Notes: a model not told the origin generated them from the letters alone. DNA of 64,000 nucleotides from Promethearchaeota archaeon (GCA_019057795.1 JAHLWS010000024.1:1-64000); one strand, 5' to 3'; numbered from the stretch's first letter, positions 10,681 to 59,487 are shown. Translations and numbers: made by a program.

Positions 10681-11441
10681 TTTCCTAATTCTTCTCTCTT
10701 AATTAGAACTTCTTTAATATAATAGCAATTTTCTCGATAAGGACAAATTTGGCATCCCCAATCATATTCACAGTCAATCTTTTTTTTCCATTCTTCAATT
10801 TTGGCTTTCCATTTCTTAGCAAATTGTGCTGTTATTTCGGAAGAGATTTCTTTGAAATGTCCTATTGAATCTGTATATGTGATAAAGAATATTTCCATAG
10901 CTTTGATTAGATTTCCAAATTTTTGGTGATAAAGATGAAAGATTGCATTTCCTAAAAGTTCAAATGAAAAATTGCGTTGTAGTGCATTGTAACTTATTCT
11001 ACACCAAAATCTCCGAGGAATTGTTCTTATTAGAAAACCCTCAATGCTATTGGAGATAAAAGATAATTGCCTTAATTCATCATTTTCTATTTCACTTTTA
11101 TTGACTCCAATTAAAATGAATAATCCAAAATCGATAGAGGATTCCTTTATTGCTTTAATTTCTTGACCTAATAGAGTTATATTTCCGTCATGAAGGTTTT
11201 CTAATTCCTGAATCGGAAAAACAAGTAAAAAAGATTTTTTATTTACGCCCCCTAATTCTAATCCGGTTTCTTCTTGAAGAATAACTTTTTTAAAATAATC
11301 TAACTTAACTCCAATATTAGATTTGCCAAAGAAATTATAATAGTCAAGATTTTTTTGATAAGTAATCAGATTTTTTCCAATTTCGTATTCTTTGTTGAAA
11401 AAGTCCCTAAGTCTTTGTATCAACCGTTGATTTTGCATCAA
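10677..11441 (-). CDS. Truncated acetyl-CoA synthase beta (CdhC/AcsB)-like protein, copy 1
   Basis: ELGG..F...DGNITLLG.EI and IEGF...FWCRIS...FSFELLG match the ACS middle domain. Ends with Cx5CxxCx5C. Paralogue of 33406-34173. Confidence 0.7.
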   Translation of the reverse strand: MMQNQRLIQRLRDFFNKEYEIGKNLITYQKNLDYYNFFGKSNIGVKLDYFKKVILQEETGLELGGVNKKSFLLVFPIQELENLHDGNITLLGQEIKAIKESSIDFGLFILIGVNKSEIENDELRQLSFISNSIEGFLIRTIPRRFWCRISYNALQRNFSFELLGNAIFHLYHQKFGNLIKAMEIFFITYTDSIGHFKEISSEITAQFAKKWKAKIEEWKKKIDCEYDWGCQICPYRENCYYIKEVLIKREELGK

Positions 11442-16139: not shown

Positions 16140-16140
16140 A

Positions 16141-17562: not shown

Positions 17563-17688
17563 TTTTATTTCACTTATTAAATAATACTAATTCACTCCCA
17601 TATTTATACAAATTTTAGAGAATTTAATTTTTATTTAACCAAATTATTATTTAAATATATAGAAACATGTATAGAAATCTCATCAGTA

Positions 17689-25200: not shown

Positions 25201-28200
25201 TTGATAGAATTGATAAAAACAAAATACTTTAAACGAATACTTTTGATTTCAATTTTTATGATATCTTGCGTCTATATTAATCCGGCATTATTCTCATCGA
25301 ACCAAGACCAAGATTCTACCGTTCTGGATGATTTTAGCCAAGAAGCACCTAAGTATAGTATTACTGGAGATCACCCATGGTGGGATCCCTCTTTTAGATC
25401 AAGACAGTTAATAAATATTACAAATCCATATTCAGAAAGCTTTGAAAATTTTGGAGTCTCTTTTGATTTTAATTATACTGATTTAGTTGCTGAAGATAAA
25501 TTAAATGCAAGCTTAAAAGATATAAGAATCATTGAATACATTGGAGAAGATCCCTTTTTAAGAAAATATTATTTCATAAAGGATTATCCTACCGATGATA
25601 TAGTAACTATTTGGTTTGATACAAACGCTACTGCAAGCACAACAGAAACTGACACTTATTTATATTACGGTAATAACGACGCAGAGATATTAACCAGTCA
25701 TTTTATGAATCAATCTTTAGATGATGCTGCAAATAATTTCGGATGGATTAGAAATGGTAATTTTGAACTTGACCCAGTGGGTCAAGGAACCAACCCATTA
25801 CTTGATAGTGTGTTTGGATGGTATTGGTCAGACGACCTTCCTGACTCAGATTATCCAGATTATGACCCGCCTGCCCCAGGGTCTAATTATCAGCATAATT
25901 TATCTACTTATACGGGCCAACATGAACAAGTATATGAAGGCACTTATTCATTTAAATGGGGTAATACAGCTCATCGTGTTGATACGGGTGTAACTGGAAA
26001 TGATTTTATTGGAACTTTATTTTGCACTCCTTTTGTCGTTCCAAAAGTATCTGGTGGATCAAATAAAATTTATATACAAGCTTGGCGTAATATTAGGGTA
26101 TACGATCATGGACCGAAGTATATGGGATATTACTTAAAGATTTCTAATAATTTCAATGAAGATGTGAATATAGGACATGACTCATATCCAAGTACTACAT
26201 ATTCTAGTGGGGAGGTAGAAAGTTGGGAGAGTATAGGGAAGAACGAGGATGAAACAGTGCTTAAGGATAATTTTCTTATTCTTGATGATGCTAATACTGG
26301 AATATTAGGCGAACTAACAGATATTATTTATATAGATGTCACTGACTATCAAGGTGAGACAATTTTCTTAGAATTTATAATGTACGGTGAAGAAAATCAA
26401 GTGGAAGCATTTGGGCAAATAGATGATGTAAGATTTAATTATACATTAGATGCAACTTTAAATCCAGAAATTGAAGAAAGAAGGGCAGATGTTACAATAA
26501 TCACTAGAGATATTGATGGTAGAATTGTTCCTAACGCTGAAGTTTCAATAGTGAACATGTCACTTCCGAGTCCAATTTTGGATACGAAAAATACATCATT
26601 AGACGATGCATCTGTTATTTTTACCGGCTTAGATTATGGAACATATAATATAACTGTTAATTATACAATCCCAAGTACGGGTATTGAAACAGTAGTATAT
26701 GATAGTAGTTTAATAGGGGGGAGAGATTTTTTAATTGATAAAACGAGGCATAATTTTACGATAATTTTGGATATATGGACTATAGATTTTGAGATTGTAG
26801 ACTCAAGTAGAGAGCCTTTAAATTATGGGTTTATAGAAATTTATAATATAACCGATACAGGCGAATTTTTAGATAACCTTACTCTTGATTCAGATGGAAA
26901 AGCCACTTTTCGATGGAAAAATCAGACAAGTTATTATTATCAAGTTTACTATAACAATATTGATTATAATCTTAATCCTATAGCGCTAAATGAAAGTTAT
27001 ATCTATAGACATAATTATGATAAAAAAGATGTGAAATACATAGAACATACATTAAACGTAAACCAGACAAATACAGCCACAGGAGATTTCTTTTCTGTTA
27101 GCGAGTATATATATACAAATGGGTCAAGAACTTTATTAAGCAACAAGAAAATAATTAAAGCAAACATAACATTAACGGGAATGGACGCACACCTCGACGA
27201 TGTCTCCATTTATTATATTGATAAATATAATTCAACACCAACAGAGGATAATCTTATTTTCTATAATGACAGTTATACAGACTCAGATAATAGTGATTTT
27301 ATTCAAATTGACATAAGAGAACCACCAATAAACCCGAGTAATTTAAAATTAGATGCTTACGAAGTCTTTGGTTTACTTATTGAAGTAAATGGCCAAAATT
27401 CGACTCAATGTAATGGAACGATTAAAATAGATCTTTTTGAAACTAATAATATTTATAATATTACAGCTTTAGCCAAGGTTAATATTCGTGTTATTGATTC
27501 AGTTGGAAATGAGGTTATAGGTTGCCTTGTAAAAGTAAATAGCACGATGATTTCGGAAGAGTTTTTTGAAACCACCTTAAGAACAAAAGAATTTGGTAAT
27601 GGGTATGCGTTCGGACAGATAAATACTGAATTGCCCTTATGGTTTTTAAAAGGTGAAACTTATAATTTTTCTTTAGTGTTTTTTGGAACACACAAAGATT
27701 TAATTGTAAATAATACTCAACCAAGTCAGTGGACACCCGAAGAGGGCGTTAATGTGTATTACTATAATTATACGGTCAATCAAGCGTCTAATCTAACATT
27801 TGAAATTTTTCTAGGAGTCGGCGTAAATATAAGTGATTATAAAACGAAATTTGAAAGTATGACTTTGGATGAAGATGTTATCTGGGGGCAAAATGTAACA
27901 GTTCAAGTTAATTTTTATTCAACTACTGATAATTGGCAAACTTCTGAACCAATCACCCTTCCAGCAGAAGTTATATGTTCTATTAAAGCTACAGGCCCTG
28001 GGAGTATTGTTCTTTTAACATTGAGTATGGAATCAAAATTAGGGAACGGACTTTTCGATGTTGAATTTAATTCCAGCCTTCTATCAGCAGGTGGAAGAGG
28101 TGAAGTTTATTCAATTATCATATCTGGAAGCAAAACAGGATATAGTAATCCTAATGATGTAAGTGATACAACTTTTATAGATGCTGTCCCAACTGTTCTA

Positions 28201-29514
28201 AAAATGCACGATTATTATGATTCTTTAATAGAAATTTCTGAATTCTCTCAAACATATGGTGAAAATGTCAATTTAACGGTTAAATATTATAATGATACAA
28301 ATTCCCCATTGAAAGAGGCAACGCTATCTTATGAATGGCTTTCTATGGATCCAGTTCTATTCTATGAGGATCCTAATAATGAGGGATATTATACTGCTAC
28401 TATTAATACTACAATTGCAGGAATTTGGGGTGTAAAATCGATTAAAGTAACTGCTAGTTTAGAAAATTATTCAACACAAACTTTAATAACCTCTATTAAT
28501 ATTGGAAAAAGACCTACAACGCTTAATGGCCAAGAAGATTTAGTATATATAAGTTCAAAAGTTTGGGTGGAAGATCCTCATAATTTCACTTATGAATATA
28601 AAGATTCGATAACAGGTAATTTAACTGGAGATTTAGATGTTGCCATTTTTTCTTGGCAAAAAATGGATGAGCTGGGAGAACCAATCGCCGGAATTGACGG
28701 TACTGGAATTTTAACTCAAAACGAAAGTAAAATATATACATTAGATTTCAAAACTGAACTCAAGAGCATCGGTTTTTATTTTTTATATGTAAACTTGTAT
28801 AAAGAAAACTATGAAGAAAGAGCTGCTCTTATTAATTTAGAGATATTATATCGCGAATTTGAGGTTAAATTAAATGTAACTCATCTAGATGGAAATCAGA
28901 TCAGTGTTGTTCAAGGAAATGATGTTGAATTTGTACTTTCTTTAACTGATCTAACAAGAAACAATATTTCTTTAGAAGGTGCGGCAGTAATATTAGATAT
29001 AAATAACGCATTATACACTTTAATAGAATCATCTCCAGGTGCGTATACATTAAATTTTACAACAGCAGATATCGATACCTTCTTTGCACCTCAACCATTA
29101 ACAGGAATCATAACAATTCAAAAAGCCAATTTCACATCACAAGAAATAAGAATTACTATAGTTGTACAAATGGAAGAAATATTTCCTGGCATGCCCGTGT
29201 TTTACTTTATTTTAATTGTTGCCTCTATTATTGGTATAGCTGGAAGTTTAATAGCTTATAGAGTTATTCAGCAAGCGAGAATTCCAAAGTTCGTCAAAAA
29301 AATCAGGAAAGTTAAAAGTAAGATAAAATCAAAAAAACCTATATCTGAAACTTATGCAATCAAAACAAAGAAACAAATGATGCTGAAATTATTCAGAGAA
29401 GATTGGAAAGCTTTAGACCTTTCCCTTGAAGATACATTAGGTACGCGTGATTTGAAATTAAAGACTATTCCATTGAAAGAGAAGAAATCCAAAAAAGGAG
29501 GCGATAGAGACTAA
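25201..29514 (+). CDS. Large single-pass cell-surface glycoprotein (DUF2341-like N-terminus, beta-sandwich repeats, C-terminal TM and basic cytoplasmic tail)
   Basis: Signal peptide; WW...R..I.I.N / DIRI / YLYYGN (DUF2341-like); many NxS/T sequons; TM FYFILIVASIIGIAGSLIAY followed by RIPKFVKKIRK. Confidence 0.85.
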   Translation: MIELIKTKYFKRILLISIFMISCVYINPALFSSNQDQDSTVLDDFSQEAPKYSITGDHPWWDPSFRSRQLINITNPYSESFENFGVSFDFNYTDLVAEDKLNASLKDIRIIEYIGEDPFLRKYYFIKDYPTDDIVTIWFDTNATASTTETDTYLYYGNNDAEILTSHFMNQSLDDAANNFGWIRNGNFELDPVGQGTNPLLDSVFGWYWSDDLPDSDYPDYDPPAPGSNYQHNLSTYTGQHEQVYEGTYSFKWGNTAHRVDTGVTGNDFIGTLFCTPFVVPKVSGGSNKIYIQAWRNIRVYDHGPKYMGYYLKISNNFNEDVNIGHDSYPSTTYSSGEVESWESIGKNEDETVLKDNFLILDDANTGILGELTDIIYIDVTDYQGETIFLEFIMYGEENQVEAFGQIDDVRFNYTLDATLNPEIEERRADVTIITRDIDGRIVPNAEVSIVNMSLPSPILDTKNTSLDDASVIFTGLDYGTYNITVNYTIPSTGIETVVYDSSLIGGRDFLIDKTRHNFTIILDIWTIDFEIVDSSREPLNYGFIEIYNITDTGEFLDNLTLDSDGKATFRWKNQTSYYYQVYYNNIDYNLNPIALNESYIYRHNYDKKDVKYIEHTLNVNQTNTATGDFFSVSEYIYTNGSRTLLSNKKIIKANITLTGMDAHLDDVSIYYIDKYNSTPTEDNLIFYNDSYTDSDNSDFIQIDIREPPINPSNLKLDAYEVFGLLIEVNGQNSTQCNGTIKIDLFETNNIYNITALAKVNIRVIDSVGNEVIGCLVKVNSTMISEEFFETTLRTKEFGNGYAFGQINTELPLWFLKGETYNFSLVFFGTHKDLIVNNTQPSQWTPEEGVNVYYYNYTVNQASNLTFEIFLGVGVNISDYKTKFESMTLDEDVIWGQNVTVQVNFYSTTDNWQTSEPITLPAEVICSIKATGPGSIVLLTLSMESKLGNGLFDVEFNSSLLSAGGRGEVYSIIISGSKTGYSNPNDVSDTTFIDAVPTVLKMHDYYDSLIEISEFSQTYGENVNLTVKYYNDTNSPLKEATLSYEWLSMDPVLFYEDPNNEGYYTATINTTIAGIWGVKSIKVTASLENYSTQTLITSINIGKRPTTLNGQEDLVYISSKVWVEDPHNFTYEYKDSITGNLTGDLDVAIFSWQKMDELGEPIAGIDGTGILTQNESKIYTLDFKTELKSIGFYFLYVNLYKENYEERAALINLEILYREFEVKLNVTHLDGNQISVVQGNDVEFVLSLTDLTRNNISLEGAAVILDINNALYTLIESSPGAYTLNFTTADIDTFFAPQPLTGIITIQKANFTSQEIRITIVVQMEEIFPGMPVFYFILIVASIIGIAGSLIAYRVIQQARIPKFVKKIRKVKSKIKSKKPISETYAIKTKKQMMLKLFREDWKALDLSLEDTLGTRDLKLKTIPLKEKKSKKGGDRD

Positions 29515-30617
29515 TGCCAATTGGATTTATCGTAATGAGATGGGACCCTAAAGTAAGTACGGATATTATTACAAAGTACCCCGAAGAAATTATCATATCG
29601 GATGAGACCTTAATGCAAATCTATGCGGCTCATGAATATACAGGAGAACCTGGAATGATAAGCTTAATGGTGGGTCATTTGAATATTGCGTCATACTATA
29701 CTGGAGGTGAAAGACCGTTATATCTCATTTTAATTTTAAACTTGGATGACGACCCAGACCTTTACGAAGGCGGATTGGCGGATATATCACGGATAATCCT
29801 TCAGAATTTTGAAAATCGAGCATATCTCGAAATGATTCCCTTTTTGTTTCAACGTTTGTCTGCTTACCCTCATCTAAACACTGAACAAGCTCTCGCTTTA
29901 ACTTATCAAGATGAAATAAATAGATTACTCATTAACAGATTAAGAGACGAAGGAGTTGTTTCCAAATCAGAACTAAAAGTGTGGCTAAAAGATAAATACC
30001 GTAGAGGCTTTTTTGATATTGATGCGATCTTAATTGAATTGATTAAAAAAGATATAATAAAAGAAGCTTCTGTAAAAGGAATGCCTTCTGAACTAATATT
30101 TTTCATAAACGACATATTCATAATTAGAAAGCCACCTATCAAAATATTGAGCGATCTTATAGGACGAGGACTTCCTGAACCTTTAGTCGAAGGTTACAAC
30201 TCTGAAGTTAGAAGATTCTTTCAAAATTATCGACCTTCTGAAGATGACAATTTGAAAATAGTAGATCTTCTCACTGATCCACAGTTATCTGAGATATTAA
30301 AATTAATGAGAATAGCAATAGTAACCAGGAATACTTTGGAAAAACTTAGAAAAAAAGGAGTAGATGATATAGACGGCGGAATTAAGAAGTTATTAGATAA
30401 TAAAATTATACAAGTATTCCAAGGCGAAAATGGAGCTAAATATTATGCATTACTTTCTGACTTACATATTTCCCTTGTATATCCTAGATATATTTTAAGT
30501 ACGATACTACATCAATACGATGTAAAATCGAAATCAGAGCCGGTTTTAATTGAGTATCTGAATGTGCTTGAAGATGCATATCGCCCTTACAAGCTTAAAA
30601 CAAAAGCTATAGAATAA
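29514..30617 (+). CDS. uDENN/longin-like N-terminal domain plus probable winged-helix domains
   Basis: N-terminus FIVMRWDPKVSTDIITKYP resembles the uDENN/longin start; later segments are wHTH-like. Translationally coupled (TAATG) to the surface protein gene. Confidence 0.6.
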   Translation: MPIGFIVMRWDPKVSTDIITKYPEEIIISDETLMQIYAAHEYTGEPGMISLMVGHLNIASYYTGGERPLYLILILNLDDDPDLYEGGLADISRIILQNFENRAYLEMIPFLFQRLSAYPHLNTEQALALTYQDEINRLLINRLRDEGVVSKSELKVWLKDKYRRGFFDIDAILIELIKKDIIKEASVKGMPSELIFFINDIFIIRKPPIKILSDLIGRGLPEPLVEGYNSEVRRFFQNYRPSEDDNLKIVDLLTDPQLSEILKLMRIAIVTRNTLEKLRKKGVDDIDGGIKKLLDNKIIQVFQGENGAKYYALLSDLHISLVYPRYILSTILHQYDVKSKSEPVLIEYLNVLEDAYRPYKLKTKAIE

Positions 30618-31038: not shown

Positions 31039-32415
31039 TTACTCATCATTCGTATTAACAGGGTCATTCGGATCAGTAGAGTAATCATTAACTTCTTGTC
31101 CATCAGTCAATCCATCGTCATCCGAGACAGAGTCGTTTGGATCGGTATCATTTTGGTATTCTTGAAGATTTGTTAAACTATCACCATCAGGGACATTTGT
31201 AGAGTCATCAACATTAGGGTTTAAGCTGTTATTTACTTCCCATCCGTCTGACATTCCATCATCGTCACTATCGGGGTTATTCGGATCAGTAGAGTAATCA
31301 ATAACTTCTTGTTCTTCTTCTTGTTCTTGTTCTTGTTCTTCTTCTTGTTCTTGAAAATTTGTTAAACCATCACTATCAGGTAGATATCGTTTTAATTTTT
31401 CAGATTTTTGGGAAAATTCTTTATAAAGAGCATCATCTCCCAAATCAAGACACAAATCTGCGATTTGATCAAAATAACTCACACTTTCAGCAATATCTCC
31501 GTTTATTAAGCTTTTATTAGCCAATTGAATTAATTGATCTCTTTCAAATAAAGGTTTCAATAACATTGATTCTTCCGTGTTCATTTCTAAGATATCTGCA
31601 ACGATTTGAACCATTTTTTCTTGATTATTGGGTTCAATTGCAACCATCGAATATGTCTTGATTCCGAGTATTTCTTCGATCTTTTCAACGCTTAATGCCC
31701 CATCTAAGTCTTGCTTATTTGCAATTGCAGCGGAATGTGCGTTTGGTGTCTGTTCTTTTATTAATTCAACGAAGTATTTGCTTTTCTCTACATTTTCTAA
31801 AGTGGAATCTGTAATTAAGAGAACAGCATCGCTCCCAAACATAAAATCGTTCCATAAATAGCTAAATTGTTCTTGACCGGCAAAATCCCATAAATGGAAG
31901 ATTAACTTTCCAATCTTAATAGTAGAAACTTTACCTGTTATTGTAGGAATGTGCGTTTCGGGAACTTCTTCCGCACGTATTAATTTTGTAATTGTTGTTT
32001 TCCCTACTCCAGAAAATCCTATTAACGAGATTTTAGTTTTTATTTTTTTATGAATTGATTCTATTAATGGGTTAAATATTTCAAAGAGCGACGGATCTAA
32101 ATTGTCGAGAATATCACCAAATGATTCTAAAAAATCTTTTTTTAATTTATTTAATTCTATTTTTACAGTTTCCATATCATCATTGAATCCAATTATGAAT
32201 ATGAAGATTAAATTTGAAGCTCTGTCTACGGTATATGTAATTCTATATTTAAAAAAATTAGAGCTTCCAAAATCGTTTAAAAGACCACGAGATATCTCTG
32301 TTTCAATTTCTTGGTAAATACTTTGAAAATTTTCAAAGGATAAGACTTTACCAAAGTCTCTCTCGTATATTATATTCCCATCCTTTAAGATATATATTTG
32401 TCGCAACATTTTCAT
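31039..32415 (-). CDS. Longin-like domain + Arf/Rab-superfamily small GTPase + helical domain + acidic TSP3-like Ca-binding repeat tail
   Basis: GFSGVGKT, PTI, WDFAGQE, NKQD; tail with DSDDDGMSDGWE, DGDSLTNLQE, SDDDGLTDGQE. Confidence 0.9.
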   Translation of the reverse strand: MKMLRQIYILKDGNIIYERDFGKVLSFENFQSIYQEIETEISRGLLNDFGSSNFFKYRITYTVDRASNLIFIFIIGFNDDMETVKIELNKLKKDFLESFGDILDNLDPSLFEIFNPLIESIHKKIKTKISLIGFSGVGKTTITKLIRAEEVPETHIPTITGKVSTIKIGKLIFHLWDFAGQEQFSYLWNDFMFGSDAVLLITDSTLENVEKSKYFVELIKEQTPNAHSAAIANKQDLDGALSVEKIEEILGIKTYSMVAIEPNNQEKMVQIVADILEMNTEESMLLKPLFERDQLIQLANKSLINGDIAESVSYFDQIADLCLDLGDDALYKEFSQKSEKLKRYLPDSDGLTNFQEQEEEQEQEQEEEQEVIDYSTDPNNPDSDDDGMSDGWEVNNSLNPNVDDSTNVPDGDSLTNLQEYQNDTDPNDSVSDDDGLTDGQEVNDYSTDPNDPVNTNDE

Positions 32416-32605: not shown

Positions 32606-33382
32606 TCAGATTTCCAGTATTTTTTCTATATTACTTGTTATTTTTTGAAAACTTTTAGAATCTTCAGGAACGCCAATTATAGCCTTACCTTCTAAATCAA
32701 ATTTAGTTAGAATTTCATCTTCAGGAATTAATGCAAGTAAAGGTAAATCGTATTCTCTAAGCATATCCAGTATATTAGTAATATCACCTTTAACTCTATT
32801 TATTATAACGCCTATTTTTCTATAGCTTGTAAATTTTTTAGCGCTTTTTCTAATTGATTTAGCAGTTTCTATACTCCTTAGAGATATATCTGAGATAATT
32901 AAGATAATATCAACAGATTTAATTACCATACGGTTAATTTGTTCAAGCCCCACTTCACAATCGATCAAGACGACATCAAAGTCGCTAGAAATTGATTCTA
33001 TGACTTTTCGAAGCAAAGCGTTCGAAGGACAGAAACACCCTGGACCTTCGGGTTGACCAATTGAAAACAGACTAAAATCTTTACTCTCCTTAATAGCACT
33101 ATAAACCTCGAAATCTATGTTCTCTGCTAGCGATTGGATATCTTTTTTTTTATTTATTGTTTTATCAATTAATTCGGCTCTAACCATCTCGAGACTTTTC
33201 TCGGGAAGCAAATTAACCATTTTACTAAGATGAGGATGAGTAGGGTCTGCATCAATCAGTAATAATTTGAAATTATAAGAGATTGAAATTGCTTTAGCAA
33301 TAAGAGTTGTTATAATTGTTTTTTCAACGCCTCCTTTTCCGACAATAGCAACTATAAGTGGCCTTTTTCTCTGGTTATTCAT
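32606..33382 (-). CDS. cooC: CooC/AcsF-like nickel-insertion ATPase (MinD family)
   Basis: GKGGVEKT (variant Walker A), IDADP, Ni-binding GPGCFCP, DCEVGLE. Confidence 0.85.
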   Translation of the reverse strand: MNNQRKRPLIVAIVGKGGVEKTIITTLIAKAISISYNFKLLLIDADPTHPHLSKMVNLLPEKSLEMVRAELIDKTINKKKDIQSLAENIDFEVYSAIKESKDFSLFSIGQPEGPGCFCPSNALLRKVIESISSDFDVVLIDCEVGLEQINRMVIKSVDIILIISDISLRSIETAKSIRKSAKKFTSYRKIGVIINRVKGDITNILDMLREYDLPLLALIPEDEILTKFDLEGKAIIGVPEDSKSFQKITSNIEKILEI

Positions 33383-33405
33383 TTAATACACCCCAATTTA
33401 TCCGT

Positions 33406-34173
33406 TTATTTCTCAATCTTCTCTCTTAAAACTAATACTTGCTTAATATCTAAACATTTTTCTTGATAAGGGCATATTTCACAGCCCCAATCGTAATCAC
33501 AATCAATTCTCTTTTTCCATTCATCTATTTTTTTTCTCCATTTTTCTTTAAACCTATCTGTAATTTCTGACGATAGCGTAATGAATTTTTCAATAGAATC
33601 GGGATATGAACTGATTAATATAACTTCTATAGTTTTAATTAAACCTTCAAATTTTTGTTTGTACAGAGAAATAATAGCATTTCCTAAAAATTCGAACGAA
33701 AATCCTTTCTGCAAGGCTGATGTACTTAATCTACACCAAAACCTGCGAGGAATTGTTCGAATGGAAAACCCTTCTATGCCATTTGAGATAAAACTCAATT
33801 GCCTTAACTCATTTATATCCTTCTCTGTGCTGTTTTCAACTCCAATTAAAATCATTATCCCAAAATCTATATTTTTATCCAAACATTTATCAATTTCTGG
33901 ACCTAATAAAGTTATTTTTCCAGATTCGATTAGTTGGGCCTCTTCAATTGGAAATGTTATTGAGAAGGATTTATTTTTCATCCCACCAAGTTCTATACCC
34001 GTCTCTTCTTCAAGGATGATTTCTTTAAATTTATTTAATTCAACTTTAATACCAAAATTATCTAAAAAAGCAGTGTGATTCGAGTCTGAACGATAAAATG
34101 CCAAGAGCTTTCCGTGCTTTCGTTCCTTTTCTAAGAAATCTTTTATCTTTTCTATAATAATTTTGTTTTGCAT
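33406..34173 (-). CDS. Truncated acetyl-CoA synthase beta (CdhC/AcsB)-like protein, copy 2
   Basis: ELGG...IESGKITLLGPEI and IEGF..FWCRLS..A..KGFSFEFLG; C-terminal CDYDWGCEICPYQEKC. Confidence 0.72.
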   Translation of the reverse strand: MQNKIIIEKIKDFLEKERKHGKLLAFYRSDSNHTAFLDNFGIKVELNKFKEIILEEETGIELGGMKNKSFSITFPIEEAQLIESGKITLLGPEIDKCLDKNIDFGIMILIGVENSTEKDINELRQLSFISNGIEGFSIRTIPRRFWCRLSTSALQKGFSFEFLGNAIISLYKQKFEGLIKTIEVILISSYPDSIEKFITLSSEITDRFKEKWRKKIDEWKKRIDCDYDWGCEICPYQEKCLDIKQVLVLREKIEK

Positions 34174-34293
34174 TAATTATAATAAACCTTCTTTATTTTT
34201 TAATTTACTAATTTCATTCTTATTCAAACTTATTCTATAGATTTAAAGTTAGTAAAATAAAGTAACAAAAAAAAAGATAATGAATTTAAACTA

Positions 34294-35538
34294 CTATAGA
34301 ACTTTTCTAACCAATTCAGCGATATCAAAAGCTTTAATTTCTTCATTTTTGATATTAGACTTAAACTGATTTAAACAGAAAGGACAAGTTGAGACTATTG
34401 CATCGGCAGAAGTAGTTTTTGCTTCCTCAATACGTTCTTTTGCTGCAAACTCAGATAAATCTTTAAATGCTGATCTAACCCCTCCACCAGAACCACAACA
34501 CCAAGCATTTTCTCTATTTCGATTCATTTCCACTAATTTAATACCCGGTATTTTTTTTAAAAGCATTCTTGGTTGTTTATAAATTCCCATATGTCGTCCG
34601 ATATGGCAAGGATCGTGGTAAGTCACCATCATATTAAGATCTTTATCAAATTTTATTTCTCCTTTATTAAATTTCTCTAATAAGAATTCTGGTAGATGCA
34701 TTACTTCAATTTCATGCTTAATGCCAAACTTATTTGGATATGTTTCTTTTAACATTCGATAACATCCAGCACAAGAAGTAATAATTTTCTCAATTCCAGC
34801 GTCATTAAAAATCTTCATATTTGTCTCAGCAATGTTTTTAGCTTTATCAGTTTGACCCGTCATGTATACTGGAGAACCACAACAGTGTTCATCTTTCAGA
34901 ATTTTAAATTCAATTTTTAGGATATTTAATATCTCCGCTGTTGCAATCGCGACATTTTGCTCTCGATAACTTGAAGTACACCCAACAAAATATGCAATTT
35001 TTGCGTTGGACGATTGATTCAGATGAGGGGGTAACCAATTCAATCTTTTATTATGTTCTTCCATATAAGGATTATTTTCCATTAGGATATGATCCGTATA
35101 TCTAGAATGTTCTGGCATAGGTCCTAAACCTAGTTTAACAGCCTGCTCTCTCATGGCCATTAACCATTCTCCAGCATAATGGTGAATTTCTGGTATTTGG
35201 CATTGTTGCGTACATGCCAAGCATACTGAACATTGATACAATATTTTAGAAAGATTTGCTGACCATTTAACCTTTCCAGATGATACACCCCAACTAAGAA
35301 GATTCTTCCCTCCAAGATAAAAAGCTTCAAATTTTCCAAACTCTCCTGAAGGACAAACACGAGACCAAAATTCTTCTTGATATGTTGTTCGGCAAGTACC
35401 GCATTTTCCACATTGATATAAAATATCCTTATAATGTTCTAAATCCTTGTATCTATCAAGTTTTTTTTGATTTGCCACCGTTGTAATCAGAGTTATACCT
35501 TTTCCTTCTATATACTTAACATTCTTTTCTTTTTCCAT
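34294..35538 (-). CDS. Fe-S oxidoreductase, HdrD/GlcF-like (2x[4Fe-4S] + two CCG domains)
   Basis: Same motifs as, and a close paralogue of, 14898-16139. Confidence 0.92.
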   Translation of the reverse strand: MEKEKNVKYIEGKGITLITTVANQKKLDRYKDLEHYKDILYQCGKCGTCRTTYQEEFWSRVCPSGEFGKFEAFYLGGKNLLSWGVSSGKVKWSANLSKILYQCSVCLACTQQCQIPEIHHYAGEWLMAMREQAVKLGLGPMPEHSRYTDHILMENNPYMEEHNKRLNWLPPHLNQSSNAKIAYFVGCTSSYREQNVAIATAEILNILKIEFKILKDEHCCGSPVYMTGQTDKAKNIAETNMKIFNDAGIEKIITSCAGCYRMLKETYPNKFGIKHEIEVMHLPEFLLEKFNKGEIKFDKDLNMMVTYHDPCHIGRHMGIYKQPRMLLKKIPGIKLVEMNRNRENAWCCGSGGGVRSAFKDLSEFAAKERIEEAKTTSADAIVSTCPFCLNQFKSNIKNEEIKAFDIAELVRKVL

Positions 35539-35548
35539 AATAATTACC

Positions 35549-37015
35549 TCAAATTCCTTGTCCAGGGTTCATTATTTTATTAGGATCAAGTATTTTTCTA
35601 ATCTTCTCAATTAATTTTGTTGTTGCTGGTAGGGTTTTATCCTTGTAGTACTGAACTGCCCATAGTGGAGGTTTATACATAACTACGCCATCTAATTTTT
35701 GTACTGCTTTATGGATCTCTTTAAGAAGAATTCTTGTTTTTTTTATATCTTCAGGGTCATTTTTATTAAAACCTATATTCGTACGAGCAACGCAATAATG
35801 ACCACCCATCATAATTCTACTATAAAATTGGGGGGGTTTATCATATTTTAGACAGATTTCTCTTGATATATTGTAAAACTTTATGATATCTCTTGTGGAA
35901 CAATAGGTTCCTATCCATTGTCCACCTCCACCTCTAGTAAAATTCCAACACCCCCAAAATTGAACCGGAGTTTGGCCTCCTGTGGATGGTGTTAAATGTC
36001 CCATAATTCCTTGAAGATTTTCGGGAAAAGATTCTAATTGTTCTTTAATTGGAAGTGGGTCCATGTCGTATTCTTTACATATATTCATTATCCCCTCACA
36101 CTGTGCTTCATGCTGTTTTTCTGTATATGCTTGAGTTGAGATTAGTCCAAAAAAATCTGGCAAACCAAATTCTAAAGGATCTTTAGCAACATGTTCTTCA
36201 TCCAATCCCATAAGTGCTTGACACCAGCCTATATTTAGAGCGCATAGATCGATAATACCTAATCCTGCTTTCGAAAGTTTAAGGATCATTGGTATACCAT
36301 CATCTATTCTTGGAGCTATTGGCAAAAAATCAGCTCTATATGGTAATTTTGGCCATAATTTTATTGCTGCTTTAGTAACTATTCCAGTAGTCCCTTCCCA
36401 ACCAATAAATAATCCAGCTAAGTCTGGTAATGGTTGCCTACCATACCAATAATTAGAAAGACTACATGAACCAACTCTTATTAATTCCCCAGAACCCAAG
36501 ACTACTTCTAAGCCATTAATAAACTCTGCTCCTGTTCCCCCAAGCATACCAAGATCATACATTCCATAGCATAAGCAAGAAGGTATCACTCCCGTTCCTG
36601 GAGGAGACCATGTTATTCCGGCTTTTAAATCTGGGTGATTTCTGTCGAGATATCCTTTTAAATCAGCCCAAGTAATTCCTCCTTCAACTACAGCATACAT
36701 ATCGTCTTCATTTACTTCAAGAACGCGATTTAGTCTTCTTAAGTCAACTACAATCCCACCCTTTCGAGGTGTGGCTATTGAGCCAAAATTAATACCTGAA
36801 ACCCATGGTATCACAGGGATTTTATATTTATTGGCAATCTTTACTATTTCTTGGACTTGTTCTGCAGTATCTGGCATTATAGCAATATCACATTTACCTT
36901 CTGGTTCAGTTGTAATAAAGTCGTAATGATATAAAAATTGTATTTCAGGATCATCCGAAACATATCTTTCTCCTATTTTCTGCTTTAATTCAGAGACTAC
37001 ATCGTTGATATTCAT
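35549..37015 (-). CDS. FAD-binding oxidoreductase (VAO/PCMH/GlcD superfamily)
   Basis: Close paralogue of 16141-17562. Confidence 0.92.
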   Translation of the reverse strand: MNINDVVSELKQKIGERYVSDDPEIQFLYHYDFITTEPEGKCDIAIMPDTAEQVQEIVKIANKYKIPVIPWVSGINFGSIATPRKGGIVVDLRRLNRVLEVNEDDMYAVVEGGITWADLKGYLDRNHPDLKAGITWSPPGTGVIPSCLCYGMYDLGMLGGTGAEFINGLEVVLGSGELIRVGSCSLSNYWYGRQPLPDLAGLFIGWEGTTGIVTKAAIKLWPKLPYRADFLPIAPRIDDGIPMILKLSKAGLGIIDLCALNIGWCQALMGLDEEHVAKDPLEFGLPDFFGLISTQAYTEKQHEAQCEGIMNICKEYDMDPLPIKEQLESFPENLQGIMGHLTPSTGGQTPVQFWGCWNFTRGGGGQWIGTYCSTRDIIKFYNISREICLKYDKPPQFYSRIMMGGHYCVARTNIGFNKNDPEDIKKTRILLKEIHKAVQKLDGVVMYKPPLWAVQYYKDKTLPATTKLIEKIRKILDPNKIMNPGQGI

Positions 37016-37133: not shown

Positions 37134-37556
37134 ATGATTTCGATTCAAAAAGGAGAAGATTTGACTACGATCACTTTGCAAAATATTTTAAGTTATAGGA
37201 AAGACGATGAGGATTTCATAAATCTAGTATTAAACTGGAACAAAAAAGTCTTAATTGAGGTTGATGGTTTTTACCCAGTAGAAGTTATATTTGACCGCAA
37301 CAAAATAAAATTTAAAACAAAGGATTTTGATAAAAAGATAAATCTGAAAGTGAAAATGGACATATATACGTTTTTAGATTTGGCCTTTGGTAGATTAAAT
37401 CCTGTAAAAGCATTCCTTAAAGGGAAGCTTAAAATTAAAGGATTGTTAAAAATTGGAACTGTGTTAAAATTCATGAAAATCTTTTTAGAAACGATGAAAA
37501 TGGTTGCTTCAGAGCCCAATAATAATTATTTTGAATTAAATAAGGAAACAAGATAA
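37134..37556 (+). CDS. SCP2 sterol/lipid-binding domain protein
   Basis: F..LA.GRLNPVKAFLKGKLKIKG is the SCP2 signature. Confidence 0.85.
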   Translation: MISIQKGEDLTTITLQNILSYRKDDEDFINLVLNWNKKVLIEVDGFYPVEVIFDRNKIKFKTKDFDKKINLKVKMDIYTFLDLAFGRLNPVKAFLKGKLKIKGLLKIGTVLKFMKIFLETMKMVASEPNNNYFELNKETR

Positions 37557-37574
37557 TGAGGTGAAAACAAATAC

Positions 37575-37641
37575 ATGACCGAAACAAAAGAAATAAATGT
37601 GTATGAGAAGATAAGTAAAGTTTATCCAATTGTTCCTTACA
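37575..37641 (+). pseudogene. Internally deleted remnant of the 5' end of the FAD oxidoreductase gene at 38788
   Basis: 37575-37620 matches 38788-38833 at 45/46 nt; it is followed by attgttccttaca, which matches about 39022-39034. Confidence 0.85.
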
Positions 37642-37696
37642 GAAAAATTACTTTTAAAAATTCTGTTAATTTATTCAAATAAAAGTGAAACATTAA

Positions 37697-38728
37697 ATGA
37701 TTGAAACAAATATAACAAAAATGTTCGGGATAAAACACCCGATTTTTAGTGCTCCAATGGGTCCTTTTTTTACCCGCGATTTAGCTCTGGCTGTCAGTGA
37801 AGCTGGTGGATTAGGAGTATTATCTAACGTTAATATCACTGGTACAGATCCTGTTGCAGAACATAAGGCAAGCATAGAGTATATGATTGAACATACTGAT
37901 AAACCGTTCGGTCTCAATATTCTTACATCTCGGAATAATCCGGGAGTCAGACAAATGGTCAGATCATTACCGAAAATTGTCATGAGTAATGTAAGAATGA
38001 GAGATCAATGTAAGTATTGGTTGACCTCTGCAGGTTCTTCAAAAATTCTCGCAGGAGCGAAATATTTTAAAGAATTAAGAGAGAATTCAGAAGTTAAGCA
38101 CTTTCACGTAGCCCCAGCTGTATGGTTGGCTCAAAAGTGTGTGGATTCAGGAGTAGATGGAATAGTGGTGACTGGAACTGAAGGTGGAGGGCACCAATCA
38201 TATGAGAGAGTCAGTACTCTTGTTCTGCTTCAACAGATTAATAATAAATTTCCTGATTTACCAAAGATTGCTTGTGGGGGTTTTGCTACTGGAGAAGCTT
38301 TAGCCGCTGGTCTTTCACTAGGTGCAGGAGCAGTAGCAATGGGTTCAAGATTTATTGCTTCTAAACAGAGTGAATTTCATGAGAAATATAAAGCATTAAT
38401 TCCCCCTGGAAAACCACAGGATACCGGACTTTATACAGGATCCTTCGGTCCTATTCGCTTATACAAAAACGAGTATGCATTATCGCATCCAGCGCCTAGC
38501 AGCAAAGAAGAAATGATCGCTTACGAAAATTCAATATCTCCAGAACAAAGAGCAAAAGATTTAGGTGCTTATGATAGAGTATATAACGGTGATATTGACA
38601 CGGGAGCGGTTCTACTTGGTCAATCAATAGGTATTATCGATAGTATAGACGATGTCAATGACATTATTGAGAGAATAATGAATCAAGCTGAAAATATAAT
38701 TAGAAGGAATAATTCCATGCTGAGATAA
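37697..38728 (+). CDS. Nitronate monooxygenase / FabK-like FMN enoyl-reductase family protein
   Basis: HPIFSAPM, AVSEAGGLG, KPFGLN, GTEGGGH, ACGG, MGSRF, GQSIG. Confidence 0.9.
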   Translation: MIETNITKMFGIKHPIFSAPMGPFFTRDLALAVSEAGGLGVLSNVNITGTDPVAEHKASIEYMIEHTDKPFGLNILTSRNNPGVRQMVRSLPKIVMSNVRMRDQCKYWLTSAGSSKILAGAKYFKELRENSEVKHFHVAPAVWLAQKCVDSGVDGIVVTGTEGGGHQSYERVSTLVLLQQINNKFPDLPKIACGGFATGEALAAGLSLGAGAVAMGSRFIASKQSEFHEKYKALIPPGKPQDTGLYTGSFGPIRLYKNEYALSHPAPSSKEEMIAYENSISPEQRAKDLGAYDRVYNGDIDTGAVLLGQSIGIIDSIDDVNDIIERIMNQAENIIRRNNSMLR

Positions 38729-38787
38729 GACCGAAGCCCAATGTGAATTATATAAAATAAATAAGAATACAAGGTGATATAACTTTA

Positions 38788-40269
38788 ATGACCGAAACAA
38801 AAGAAAGAAATGTGTATGAGAAGATAAGTAAAGAGGATGTGCTTAAAAAGCTAGTCGAAATATTTGGAGAAAAATATGTAACCAATAAGTCTGGAGATTT
38901 ATACCCCTATTCGTACGATATGACCGAATGTGAGCCTCACATGCCTGATTTCATAGTTATTCCTGAAAATACTTCGCAATTAATCGAACTTGTTAAGTTT
39001 TGTAATTCTAATTTAATTCCCATTGTTCCTTACATATCTGGAAATAATGTAGGGGGTTTAACGATTCCGGAAAACGGTGGGATTCTCGTTGATTTTGGTA
39101 AAAAGATGAATAAAATTCTGCATGTTGATGACAATATGATGTACGCTCTCCTAGAACCTGGAGTTACTTTTGGTCAATTGAAAAAACACTTAGACGAAAA
39201 TTACCCACACTTAAGATATAGTTATCCTTATGCACCTCCATACGCAGGGGTTGTTGGAAACGTGATATTGAGTGGTATGAATAATCTCTCGTGTAAAATT
39301 GGATCAATGGGCGATTCAATTAACGGTTTAGAGGTAATTACTGCTGACGGCGAAATCGCTAGGATTGGCTCGTGTTTTTATGGAAAGGATGAAGCAGCCC
39401 CCGATAGTTGGTGGTGTAGATACCCTATGCCTGATTTAATGGGAATCTTTATCAACTGGCAAGGTATGACAGGTTTAGTAACCAAATGTGCCGTTCAACT
39501 ATGGCCTAATCCATCCATCAAACAAACCTATATCGCCATTGCTTTTGAACTTACAGATGTAGCTTCAGTAATGAGGGAAGTCGGGAGAACAGATGTCATC
39601 GACGGTATTTCAGCAGTTAGCATCGAAGTAGTAAAGATGGCTATAGAAATTCCTGAGCCTAAAAAATTTCCAGGTGAACCCTACTTTGCAGTGATGTTTT
39701 CAATCTCGGCAAAAACAAAAAATCAATTCAATGCTAGATTGGAAATTTTATCCAATGTAATCGAGAATTTAAATAAACAAGGGAAAAAAGTAATTTTAGT
39801 TAATGCTGACGAGTACGTCAAATTATTTAACTTAAGACTTAGGTGTTACCTCGATTTACCGTCCGTAGTACTTCCACTAGTAGAGTATTCAGGATTAACT
39901 TGGTTTGGGTCGTATGCTCCAAGTCACAAGCTCGAAGAACTAATCGAAAATGTGTATAAATTATTTAATAAACACAATATCACTCCATTTATTTACATGA
40001 AAATGATGAAATCAAGTCATTACGCGATATTTCGTCCTATTATGCGATATAACAAGTTTAAAGAAGGCGAAGAAGAAAGATACCACAAGCTATTAGAAGA
40101 AATAACTGATGTTTCAGTCGATTTAGGCTGTATACCATACAAAACCCCTGCTTGGATGACGGAAAAAATGCGCAAGAAGATTAACCCAGGATGGATTAAC
40201 CTCTTTGAAAAAATAAAGAAATGTATGGACCCAAACAATATATTTAACCCAGGAAGGTGGAATACATAA
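38788..40269 (+). CDS. FAD-binding oxidoreductase (VAO/PCMH/GlcD superfamily), third paralogue
   Basis: SGNNVG, EPGVTF, GLEVITADGE, PDLMGIF..G.TGLVTK, DPNNIFNPG. Confidence 0.9.
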   Translation: MTETKERNVYEKISKEDVLKKLVEIFGEKYVTNKSGDLYPYSYDMTECEPHMPDFIVIPENTSQLIELVKFCNSNLIPIVPYISGNNVGGLTIPENGGILVDFGKKMNKILHVDDNMMYALLEPGVTFGQLKKHLDENYPHLRYSYPYAPPYAGVVGNVILSGMNNLSCKIGSMGDSINGLEVITADGEIARIGSCFYGKDEAAPDSWWCRYPMPDLMGIFINWQGMTGLVTKCAVQLWPNPSIKQTYIAIAFELTDVASVMREVGRTDVIDGISAVSIEVVKMAIEIPEPKKFPGEPYFAVMFSISAKTKNQFNARLEILSNVIENLNKQGKKVILVNADEYVKLFNLRLRCYLDLPSVVLPLVEYSGLTWFGSYAPSHKLEELIENVYKLFNKHNITPFIYMKMMKSSHYAIFRPIMRYNKFKEGEEERYHKLLEEITDVSVDLGCIPYKTPAWMTEKMRKKINPGWINLFEKIKKCMDPNNIFNPGRWNT

Positions 40270-41448
40270 ATGATAGAAATTGATAAAAGTCTCGTAGGAA
40301 AAGATGTTTTGGAATTAGCATTTGATAACTGTATCCGTTGTTCTACATGTAAATATTCTTATAAGGGTTTCGAACCTTCGTGTCCTTCAGGAGAAAAGTT
40401 TTTATTCGAATCGTATTGGGCATCTGGGAAAATAAGAATAATAAGAGGTGTCGTAACTGGCGAATTAGAATGGTCTGAGGATTTAAAAGATGCTATTTTT
40501 GCTTGTCCAACTTGTGGAGCTTGTATGGACGCTTGTCAAGCGCCTCACGCCGATTATATCGTAGATATGATAGAAGCCCTAAGAGAATTAGCTGTAAAAC
40601 ATATCGGACCAGCTACAAACCAAGAGTTTCTGGTTTCTCGTTGCGAAGAGAATTGTAATCCTTATGGAGAGTCTAACTCTGATAATGAAGCGTTGAAAAA
40701 ACAATTTGACTTACCAGATAAAGCAGATTGGGTTTACTATATTGGTTGTACTTCTAATTACCGCCAACAAAGTTTAAGGGATTCAACTTTAAGATTCTTA
40801 AAAAAAAGCGGTATAAATTTCACTTTAATAGATGAGCATTGTTGTACGAGTCCTATGATTCGAACTGGTCAACTTAGCATTGTTAAGGATTATATGAGCT
40901 ATAATATCGCTCAAATTAAAAATATTGGGGCTACTAAAGTTATTACCTCATGTGCGGGTTGTTATAGAACATTTAAAAAAGATTTCGAAAAATTTGGCGA
41001 AGAATACGATTTTGAAGTGTTCCACACTTTAGAATTAGTAAAACAACTATTAGACGACGATAAATTAAAGTTTAAATCGAAGTATAATAAAACAGTGACT
41101 TATCACGACCCTTGTCATCTTGGAAGGCATATGGGCGTTTATGAACTTCCTAGAGCGATTTACAAGCAAATCCCGGGGTTAAAGCTAGTAGAAATGAAAA
41201 GAAATAGGAATTTTGCTTGGTGTTGCGGAGCTGGAGGTGGCGTAAAAATTGGATACCCTGAATGGTCTGTAGAAATATCAAAAGAACACCTTGAAGAGGC
41301 TAAGGAGACCGAAGCAACGGTAATATCGTCAGTATGCCCTTTTTGTAGGACGAACTTAAGCGATGCAAATGATAATTATAACTTTGAATTTGAAGTACTT
41401 GACCTAATGGAAATCATAGATCAATTAGATATTAAAATTGAGAAATAA
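40270..41448 (+). CDS. Fe-S oxidoreductase, HdrD/GlcF-like
   Basis: CIRCSTC, CPTCGACMDAC, YHDPCH, CCGAGGG, CPFC. Confidence 0.92.
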   Translation: MIEIDKSLVGKDVLELAFDNCIRCSTCKYSYKGFEPSCPSGEKFLFESYWASGKIRIIRGVVTGELEWSEDLKDAIFACPTCGACMDACQAPHADYIVDMIEALRELAVKHIGPATNQEFLVSRCEENCNPYGESNSDNEALKKQFDLPDKADWVYYIGCTSNYRQQSLRDSTLRFLKKSGINFTLIDEHCCTSPMIRTGQLSIVKDYMSYNIAQIKNIGATKVITSCAGCYRTFKKDFEKFGEEYDFEVFHTLELVKQLLDDDKLKFKSKYNKTVTYHDPCHLGRHMGVYELPRAIYKQIPGLKLVEMKRNRNFAWCCGAGGGVKIGYPEWSVEISKEHLEEAKETEATVISSVCPFCRTNLSDANDNYNFEFEVLDLMEIIDQLDIKIEK

Positions 41449-41633: not shown

Positions 41634-41963
41634 ATGAAAGATATTGATCAGATGGAAGAAATGATCATGGCATTAACTCCAGCAGAACGAGCGCAACTAT
41701 TACAAAAAATTGTGCAACATTTAGGTGAAAATTTTCCTAATATTGAAAGTGATCCAACCATATGTGGTGGTGAACCAAGAATTGTAAGAACAAGAATACC
41801 AATATGGCTTTTAGTACAGGCGCGGCGATTAGGAACAACTGAAGCGGACATCTTAAAAAGCTATCCTTCATTACGAGCCGAAGATATAGTAAGTGCTTGG
41901 GCATATTATCGAAGCCATAAAGAAGAAATTGAACAACAGATCAGAGAAAATGAGGAAGCATAA
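41634..41963 (+). CDS. DUF433 antitoxin (VapB45-like)
   Basis: DPTICGGEPRI..TRIP...YPSL.AEDI. Confidence 0.9.
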   Translation: MKDIDQMEEMIMALTPAERAQLLQKIVQHLGENFPNIESDPTICGGEPRIVRTRIPIWLLVQARRLGTTEADILKSYPSLRAEDIVSAWAYYRSHKEEIEQQIRENEEA

Positions 41964-41966
41964 AAT

Positions 41967-42308
41967 ATGATTCGTTTTTATGCAAATGAAAATTTTCCCC
42001 TTCCAGTCGTACAACATCTCAGAAAATTTGGATATGAATTTATAACTCTTCAAGAAACAGGTCTTGCAGGAAAGGCAATATCAGATGAAGAGGTTTTAAA
42101 ATATTCAATAAAACAGAAGTGCGTCCTAATAACTTTCAATAGAAAACATTTCATTCATTTGCATAAAGAAAATCCCGACCATCATGGCATTATTGTTTGC
42201 ACATTTGATCCCGATTTTAAGGATCTCGCAAATCATATTCATCAAGCTATCGCTAAAGAAGATAATTTATTTAAAAAATTAATTAGAATTAATCGCCCAA
42301 TGAGATAA
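41967..42308 (+). CDS. DUF5615 PIN-like toxin (VapC45-like)
   Basis: RFYANENFP, SDEEVL, LITFN.KHF, HHGII; directly downstream of DUF433. Confidence 0.88.
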   Translation: MIRFYANENFPLPVVQHLRKFGYEFITLQETGLAGKAISDEEVLKYSIKQKCVLITFNRKHFIHLHKENPDHHGIIVCTFDPDFKDLANHIHQAIAKEDNLFKKLIRINRPMR

Positions 42309-59398: not shown

Positions 59399-59487
59399 AT
59401 TTTTATACCTTTTTTATTTTTTGAATAATTATTATATATAGATTAGATTACGTTCTAGTAATTATTAATTTTAATATCTTTTTTTTT

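Follow-up and report, generated by a model that had tools for sequence, protein, structure and literature searches.

The window analyzed here is a stretch of 64,000 nucleotides (nt) from Promethearchaeota archaeon (GCA_019057795.1 JAHLWS010000024.1:1-64000), and all coordinates count from its start. We studied a run of four open reading frames (ORFs), all on the minus strand, that fill positions 32606-37015 exactly, with intergenic gaps of 10, 120, and 23 nt in gene order. They encode a 488-amino-acid (aa) oxidase linked to flavin adenine dinucleotide (FAD) (35549-37015; Pfam FAD_binding_4 and FAD-oxidase_C), a 414-aa Fe-S protein (34294-35538) whose N-terminus is of the 2x[4Fe-4S] type and precedes two CCG domains (HdrB/GlcF/TfrB-like), a 255-aa relative of acetyl-CoA synthase (ACS) that matches PF03598 only and that we call mini-ACS (33406-34173), and a 258-aa CooC-type P-loop ATPase (32606-33382; CbiA/MinD-type in Pfam), whose start lies 23 nt past the mini-ACS stop. 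A first-pass annotation of this DNA, made from the sequence alone, had described the co-oriented run, and the positions and strand of the ORFs as well as their Pfam domains agree with it. It had also reported that the window lacks genes for CO dehydrogenase (CODH), corrinoid proteins, or methyltransferases, and we likewise found none among the annotated window ORFs.

The 488-aa protein matched FAD_binding_4 at 85 bits and the FAD-oxidase C-terminal domain at 21.7 bits (Pfam). It is GlcD-like, yet it scored 84.6 bits with the GlcD equivalog, against a cut-off of 567.9 (NCBIfam); it belongs to the GlcD-type FAD-linked oxidase superfamily, with no closer assignment. The 414-aa protein matched CCG at 154.7 bits over two stretches, together with Fer4_8 (Pfam). 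Its best NCBIfam match was TfrB (234 bits, cut-off 385); it is TfrB/LdhH/GlpC-like with every score below the cut-off, and not an equivalog.

A search with PF03598 (CdhC), which the first-pass annotation had suggested as a check, matched residues 51-188 of mini-ACS at 58.7 bits, where the cut-off is 24. This was the sole Pfam family matched by the protein, and within the window PF03598 matched only this gene and a paralogue at 10677-11441. PF19436, the A3 or A-cluster domain, had no match in the 255-aa protein (Pfam), in line with the earlier remark that the domain carrying the Cys-Gly-Cys ligands of the distal Ni is missing. The true CdhC of the genome, which adjoins CdhB on contig 11, is 469 aa long and matches both PF03598 and PF19436 (253.5 bits).

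We aligned a profile of 18 close relatives with solved ACS chains and obtained E ~3e-12, covering ACS residues ~286-494 overall (286-481 in C. hydrogenoformans, 330-494 in M. thermoacetica, and 19-192 in M. thermophila CdhC). Three ACS middle-domain motifs that had previously been seen by eye, ELGG, GK(I/V)..GP(E/D)I, and EG..W.R.S..A..KGF, were recovered in this hidden Markov model (HMM) alignment. The AlphaFold2 model had a mean predicted local distance difference test score (pLDDT) of 78 and was confident for residues 1-221; it consists of an N-terminal helix, the ACS middle (A2) domain, a long helix, and a Cys tail. When the model was compared with the PDB by Foldseek, the 22 best matches (E 3.6e-12 to 2.6e-7) were without exception ACS/CdhC chains, and the match after them had E 0.28. 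The structural match to ACS on which the initial proposal depended was thus found.

The Cys tail reads C225-x5-C231-x2-C234-x5-C240. In an hhalign comparison, residues 54-236 of mini-ACS mapped onto residues 19-197 of the genome's CdhC with a probability of 96%, which placed C231xxC234 on GCVLCQ, the first A-cluster CxxC, about where the annotation had put the Cx5CxxCx5C tail. In ACS, this first CxxC supplies a cubane ligand and the Cys bridging to the proximal Ni. Because mini-ACS has no A3 counterpart and ends 15 residues past C240, it is unable to hold the Ni-Ni-[4Fe-4S] A-cluster and is no acetyl-CoA synthase. It is an ACS-derived protein made up of the A2 domain and the first A-cluster CxxC.

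CoA binding has been assigned to the ACS middle domain (PMC12289521). In the ACS-acetyl-CoA complex of C. autoethanogenum, Trp405 of A2 stacks the adenine, and two further residues, Arg383 and His386, are found close to the A-cluster (bioRxiv 10.1101/2024.08.05.606187). The three have been proposed to take part in acetyl transfer and the binding of CoA. Residues 383-447 of 6ytt_A aligned ungapped onto residues 124-188 of mini-ACS; by this alignment, Trp405 would be kept as W146, Arg383 would correspond to R124, and His386 would be lost, with S127 in its place.

The stand-alone mini-ACS family

A word-indexed search returned 390 relatives, the best 120 of which were all 247-262 aa long and, where named, came from Lokiarchaeota, Promethearchaeota, Hodarchaeota, Hermodarchaeota, and Thorarchaeota. 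With an exhaustive profile search of 50%-identity representatives, we obtained 433 at E<=1e-3, of which 226 reached E<=1e-10; none of the top 150 exceeds 310 aa. Distant members came from Thermodesulfobacteriota and other bacteria and from Sigynarchaeota, and eight of them pass the PF03598 cut-off. A profile search of 400 Asgard genomes separated mini-ACS (>130 bits, ~255-aa frames) from full-length CdhC (~100 bits, ~473-aa frames), and the mini-ACS tier fell mostly within the window's own family (125 of 134 genomes). In one bacterial phylum, mini-ACS was present in 19 of 301 sampled genomes. Two long frames, of 531 aa (G280) and 361 aa (G264), were considered as fusions and turned out to be only spurious upstream reading frames. 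A FastTree phylogeny placed 13 of 14 full-length ACS A2 domains on one long branch, with L124 misplaced and the root unresolved.

Conservation was assessed on 114 full-length representatives clustered at <=50% identity. C231, C234, C240, G63, G91, and G135 were conserved at 99-100%, and W146 and R148 at ~95%. C225 was conserved at 74% with variable spacing, giving a family tail of C-x(2-6)-C-x2-C-x5-C, and a fifth Cys, C147, is Asgard-specific. Conservation of these motifs across the representatives is far beyond chance. In addition, one member (P0220) is naturally fused to a 2x[4Fe-4S] ferredoxin domain. Taken together, these proteins form a large, uncharacterized family of stand-alone A2 proteins in which the A-cluster domain has been replaced by a short Cys tail, with carriers among Asgard archaea and anaerobic bacteria.

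A 2015 paper (PMC4443539) remarks that PF03598 can stand alone as a structural sub-domain, one case being UniProt B8FZT4 of Desulfitobacterium hafniense, and a 2026 survey of ACS phylogeny and architecture lists no A2-only form. In databases, genes of the family are named 'hypothetical protein' or 'CO dehydrogenase/acetyl-CoA synthase beta subunit' (JGI). Apart from the 2015 remark, the literature searched contained no description of the mini-ACS/CooC module, and the term 'undescribed' used in the first-pass annotation can be kept.

The CooC-type ATPase partner

Gene neighborhoods were counted over 80 Asgard loci, with a co-occurrence distance of 10 kb. A CooC-like gene lies directly downstream of mini-ACS in 74 of them; of the other six, three lie at contig ends and three belong to a second, YkgJ-linked paralogue type. 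Nearly all bacterial loci examined have a CooC-like gene as well, so the link to a CooC-type ATPase first noticed in the window recurs far outside it. The best solved relative of the window ATPase is CooC1 (PDB 3kje, E 3e-15), and its G115-C116-F-C118-P segment (GPGCFCP) aligns with GSQCYC, the Ni-binding CxC of CooC1. This G-C-x-C was invariant in 20 CooC partners at 31-95% identity, and the deviant Walker A motif GKGGxGK[ST] was present in all 19 relatives of the window ATPase.

The annotation had recommended a co-fold of mini-ACS with CooC. We modeled two CooC copies with one mini-ACS and obtained a score of 0.67 (runs 0.62, 0.67, and 0.68) versus 0.12 for the best control, on a scale that is only roughly calibrated because the alignments were self-made. 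Of 80 solved complexes, 58 reached that mark, as did 2 of 110 mismatched pairs. At least 83% of the contacts were common to the runs, and the pLDDT of the partners was at least 78. The modeled interface comprises residues 85-104, 117-123 (the CxC loop), and 126-136 of CooC, and residues 47-55, 125-131, 138-146, and 240-250 of mini-ACS. The model supports the view that mini-ACS may bind the CooC-like ATPase, and we know of no solved CooC-ACS complex that the co-fold could be recalling. Mini-ACS and the CooC-type ATPase are best read as a module of two obligately linked genes whose ancestors were ACS and AcsF/CooC.

The genome contains three CooC-like genes in total. The other two are 29-31% identical to the window copy and lie, respectively, beside ribosomal protein S2 and in an unannotated region; neither adjoins CODH/ACS. 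The S2-adjacent ATPase (G000 contig 73, 127614-128393; L115 6477-7400) is the 31% identical one and directly follows the S2 gene. A 'CooC' reportedly included in a paper on Asgard ribosomal protein clusters may be this ATPase. Directly downstream of the window CooC gene, we noticed a 458-aa small GTPase of the Arf/Roc family (31039-32415, minus strand), which is extended at its N-terminus and ends in an acidic tail containing bacterial TSP3 repeats; its homologues follow CooC in 5 of the 80 loci.

Gene neighborhoods and carrier genomes

CODH, corrinoid Fe-S protein, and methyltransferase genes were absent beside mini-ACS both in the window and in ~105 related loci. Among 30 carrier genomes tested, 20 had no PF19436 match, among them G234, which is 100% complete, and G189 and G650, each a single contig; the Asgard genomes in this test were picked for showing a single profile match, which makes the figure an existence proof and not a frequency. 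CooS was searched for in 16 such genomes and exceeded the cut-off in four only, all Asgard, and nine bacterial carriers had neither ACS (PF19436) nor CooS above the cut-off. Three Asgard genomes gave weak CooS matches in ~788-aa frames, which may be CdhA. As a side observation, the full-length ACS of three bacterial carriers (G400 contig 31, 10475-11659 (L126); G564; G658) lies in frames of ~1165-1177 aa versus the usual ~730 aa, and may be a fusion.

These data bear on the idea that the pair is an accessory of genuine CODH/ACS, storing or delivering Ni for CdhC/CdhA, with mini-ACS acting as a decoy or as a docking adaptor for CooC. Such a role would fit the CdhC-CdhB locus on contig 11, which has no adjoining CooC, and the presence of only three CooC-like genes genome-wide. 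We nevertheless regard it as highly improbable, given that 20 of the 30 tested carriers lack the ACS A3 domain, that the nine bacterial carriers lack CooS above the cut-off too, and that the pair never adjoins cdh/acs genes at the loci examined.

Both linkages named in the first-pass annotation, to cooC and to the FAD/CCG genes, recur across the Asgard loci. FAD_binding_4 and CCG genes occur within 10 kb in 56-57 of the 80, either directly upstream and co-oriented or as a divergent SCP2-FAD-CCG set like that at 37134-41448; the SCP2/FAD/CCG trio is divergent from mini-ACS in ~30 loci. No FAD/CCG pair was found at the bacterial loci examined. In one bacterial phylum, a non-homologous GMC flavoprotein occupies the flavoprotein slot in 17 of 20 loci.

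The annotation had viewed mini-ACS as a partner, sensor, or metallochaperone of the flavin/HdrD-like dehydrogenase. The part that stands is the gene linkage at 56 Asgard loci; the association is not constant, and it does not extend to the bacterial loci examined. A role specific to the upstream FAD/CCG dehydrogenase would account for the frequent co-oriented arrangement and, with the GMC oxidoreductase, for a flavoprotein at this position in another lineage. Against this, Thermodesulfobacteriota and other bacterial loci keep HGD-D/BcrAD without the FAD/CCG pair, ~24 Asgard loci have no FAD/CCG inside 10 kb, and the second mini-ACS copy of the window adjoins HGD-D/BcrAD and not directly FAD/CCG. 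We therefore consider such a specific role doubtful.

HGD-D and BcrAD genes form the other context. At 17 Asgard loci there is a single co-oriented run of HGD-D, HGD-D(, HGD-D), FAD, CCG, mini-ACS, and CooC; the HGD-D of these 17 other genomes lies directly upstream of FAD and is 34-36% identical to the window HGD-D. We checked one six-gene HGD-D/FAD/CCG/mini-ACS/CooC operon gene by gene on a complete Asgard chromosome (L072). About 5 kb downstream of that operon, at 16210-18243 (minus strand), lie genes for an AMP-binding ligase and for a reductive activator of the RACo type, which has Fer2 together with the middle and C-terminal RACo domains. The bacterial pattern is HGD-D, HGD-D, BcrAD(, BcrAD), mini-ACS, and CooC, often followed by a second HGD-D/BcrAD set, and further recurrent bacterial neighbors are TetR regulators, acyl-CoA ligase, and thiolase. 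The HGD-D/BcrAD context was seen in Thermodesulfobacteriota, one further bacterial phylum, and Sigynarchaeota. The single 2.8-Mb contig of G650 has just two HGD-D genes, and both lie in a unit of CooC, HGD-D, HGD-D, BcrAD, and mini-ACS. The recurrent family-wide context is thus HGD-D plus BcrAD_BadFG, that is, benzoyl-CoA reductase- or 2-hydroxyacyl-CoA dehydratase-like. At a locus of a Thermodesulfobacteriota metagenome-assembled genome (MAG) (L084, 8749-11026, plus strand), genes for a 375-aa poly-ferredoxin, HypA, and a CobW/HypB-family GTPase come after mini-ACS/CooC; the 12-kb locus with this nickel-chaperone set contains no hydrogenase gene.

We wondered whether the pair might itself be an ATP-driven reductase, in which a CooC-like dimer with a NifH-style bridging cluster on its CxC would feed low-potential electrons via mini-ACS into HGD-D, as an alternative or additional HGD-D activator. 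The 17 Asgard operons have no BcrAD within 10 kb, CooC belongs to the P-loop class of NifH (weak NifH-family matches), and the co-fold model turns the CxC loop toward the Cys tail. However, BcrAD activators are encoded elsewhere in the same genomes, on which account we rejected the pair as a replacement of BcrAD, and bacterial operons hold BcrAD and the pair together. Furthermore, the CxC of CooC1 reportedly binds Ni or Zn, and no CooC is known to us to carry an Fe-S cluster. Overall, this mechanism seems to us quite improbable.

The window itself holds a second mini-ACS copy (paralogue 2, 10677-11441, minus strand), which has 254 aa, is 56% identical to the first, and retains all five Cys. 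It has no CooC gene of its own. A 132-aa zinc/iron-chelating protein of the YkgJ-type CxxCxxCC family (PF03692; 10282-10680, minus strand) overlaps its stop by 4 nt and thereby takes the slot held by CooC at the first copy. At locus L020, too, a mini-ACS paralogue is paired with YkgJ, and many type-1 mini-ACS copies have a YkgJ homologue ~5 kb downstream. The segment 11616-14851 (plus strand), divergent from paralogue 2, encodes HGD-D subunits of 373 and 442 aa together with a 256-aa BcrAD_BadFG activator ATPase. At 58370-63311 (minus strand) there are another three HGD-D genes and one for a CCG-domain protein. The best solved relative of the window HGD-D proteins is BzdN, of class I benzoyl-CoA reductase, followed by a double-cubane protein and HadC.

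Further FAD/CCG genes are present. A third FAD_binding_4/CCG pair (473 and 419 aa; 14898-17562, minus strand) is paralogous to 34294-37015. The conserved operon divergent from the four-gene run (37134-41448, plus strand) encodes an SCP2 protein (37134-37556), an NMO-like flavoenzyme (37697-38728), a second FAD_binding_4 oxidase (38788-40269), and a second CCG protein (40270-41448). Elsewhere in the window, we noticed a 1242-aa ribonucleotide-reductase-like ORF (1529-5257, minus strand) with an insert that looks intein-like by eye (it starts CITGDTLIAV and has HNH-like motifs), two big ORFs of 1437 and 367 aa (25201-30617, plus strand) with no Pfam match at E<=1e-4, and adjoining DUF433 and DUF5615 genes (41634-42308, plus strand) in a layout typical of small toxin-antitoxin-like modules.

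A proposed role and comparison with known systems

With a probability of about 0.5, we read the pair as a metallo-redox accessory that derives from ACS and CooC and serves radical acyl-CoA enzyme systems. What has been observed is the homology, the loss of a domain, the conservation of the motifs, and the linkage of the genes. In its simplest form, an ACS-AcsF/CooC pair would have been cut down to a small Fe-S protein and its ATPase, and then recruited. The Cys tail would bind a [4Fe-4S]-type cluster, because its CxxCx5C spacing resembles that of WhiB-like (Wbl) proteins and because one member is fused to a ferredoxin domain; an extra metal, Ni for instance, might sit on the Cys whose counterpart in ACS forms the bridge to Ni. 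The CooC-like dimer would dock its CxC loop on the Cys tail and load or remodel the centre with ATP. Once matured, mini-ACS could act as a small metallo-redox accessory subunit or electron carrier, perhaps binding CoA or acyl-CoA via the retained adenine-stacking Trp, and would work with ATP-dependent Fe-S radical HGD-D/BcrAD enzymes on CoA thioesters and with flavoprotein dehydrogenases (FAD/CCG in Asgard archaea, GMC in bacteria). A sensor or metallochaperone role for the dehydrogenase is one of several possibilities. We speculated, as an unlikely extension, that a new Ni-containing or modified Fe-S centre installed by its own CooC is a cofactor module needed by ATP-dependent radical acyl-/aryl-CoA enzymes, serving as an electron-injection device or a CoA-thioester site.

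Alternatively, the pair may be an assembly scaffold that builds or repairs an unusual cluster of a neighbor enzyme and stays outside the working enzyme, the candidates being the double-cubane or special [4Fe-4S] clusters of HGD-D and the non-cubane clusters of CCG proteins. CooC-family ATPases are established maturation factors, the tightly coupled pair ends or flanks HGD-D/BcrAD operons, and both recurrent neighbor types bear complex Fe-S centres. Well-studied HGD-D/BcrAD systems, however, are not generally reported to need the pair, so it would not be a general maturase; the ferredoxin-domain fusion in one member suggests electron transfer, and a scaffold leaves the retained CoA-contacting Trp and Arg of ACS unexplained. 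We hold a scaffold role to be possible, if rather unlikely.

Several observations weigh against the metallo-redox accessory that we favor. The Cys tail, which would be its functional center, is modeled at pLDDT <50 (AlphaFold2), and in one subfamily it consists of CxxCx5C only. The window ATPase has the P-loop GKGGVEKT, with Glu at residue 20 versus Gly in all 19 relatives; the codon is GAA (33323-33325, minus strand), one Gly-bearing relative is 95% identical, and the change could be real and inactivating or a MAG consensus error in an A-rich run. The calibration of the co-fold score is approximate because of the two-copy chain and our own alignments, and in the model the W146/R patch lies within the CooC interface, so its role may be docking and not CoA binding. 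As for the neighbors, HGD-D lies within 10 kb in only 26 of the 80 Asgard loci and BcrAD in 5. HypA/HypB Ni chaperone genes occur near only 2-3 of ~105 loci (L084/L085, perhaps L099), too rarely to count as a link, so that Ni is not specifically indicated beyond the CooC homology. Finally, which metal the protein would hold, which way metal or electrons would pass, whether it binds CoA, and what its substrate is in the cell are matters of inference for every family member.

To our knowledge, maturation of CODH and ACS is the only known task of CooC/AcsF ATPases. In the present case, a CooC-type gene is tied to a truncated ACS relative in hundreds of genomes; because CooC is locked to this relative and many carriers have neither CODH nor ACS, the tie points to an unrecognized client and perhaps to an unrecognized metal centre. 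If the reading as a Ni or modified Fe-S centre were true, mini-ACS would represent a third class of CooC client beyond CODH and ACS, and a new Ni/Fe-S protein in the metabolism of Asgard archaea and sulfate reducers. Electron supply and cluster maturation of benzoyl-CoA reductase- and 2-hydroxyacyl-CoA dehydratase-like enzymes are active research questions. The family is commonest in Lokiarchaeia-type Asgard archaea, whose fermentative or syntrophic metabolism bears on models of eukaryogenesis. The label 'CO dehydrogenase/acetyl-CoA synthase beta subunit' misleads the inference of the Wood-Ljungdahl pathway in MAGs. With ~255 aa, mini-ACS is also a tractable protein for studying how A2 and CooC recognize each other.

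Among known systems, WhiB-like [4Fe-4S] proteins, whose motif is C-x(n)-C-x2-C-x5-C, have the C-x2-C-x5-C core spacing in common with mini-ACS; the likeness is one of motif only, as the fold is unrelated and there is no homology. With BzdNOPQ/BcrABCD, HgdAB-HgdC, and HadBC-HadI, the loci described here share neighboring HGD-D pairs, for which BzdN is the closest solved protein, and one or two BcrAD_BadFG ATPases. Operons for class I benzoyl-CoA reductases and 2-hydroxyacyl-CoA dehydratases commonly encode their own low-potential electron carrier in the form of dedicated ferredoxins. Unlike our loci, the operons described in the literature searched contain no ACS-domain protein or CooC-type ATPase.

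The ATPase shares with CooC1/AcsF the fold family, with CooC1 (3kje) as best solved relative, an aligned and invariant CxC, and a gene position beside the presumed client. It differs in that this client is mini-ACS or an HGD-D enzyme and not CODH/ACS, in that nine bacterial carriers have neither of the latter, and in the unusual P-loop Glu of the window copy. Mini-ACS, in turn, is much smaller than ACS (AcsB/CdhC) (~255 versus 470-730 aa), lacks A3, the Cys-Gly-Cys Ni ligands, and the two later cubane cysteines, for which it has a compact Cx5CxxCx5C tail, and carries Ser in place of His386 (C. autoethanogenum numbering). Its gene is unlinked to those for CODH, the corrinoid Fe-S protein, and methyltransferase, and is present in ACS-less genomes. 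Yet its A2 domain (by sequence as well as fold), the helix leading into A3, and the first A-cluster CxxC are homologous to those of ACS, the adenine-stacking Trp with a nearby Arg is apparently retained, and, as in the ACS systems, there is the pairing with a CooC/AcsF-type ATPase.

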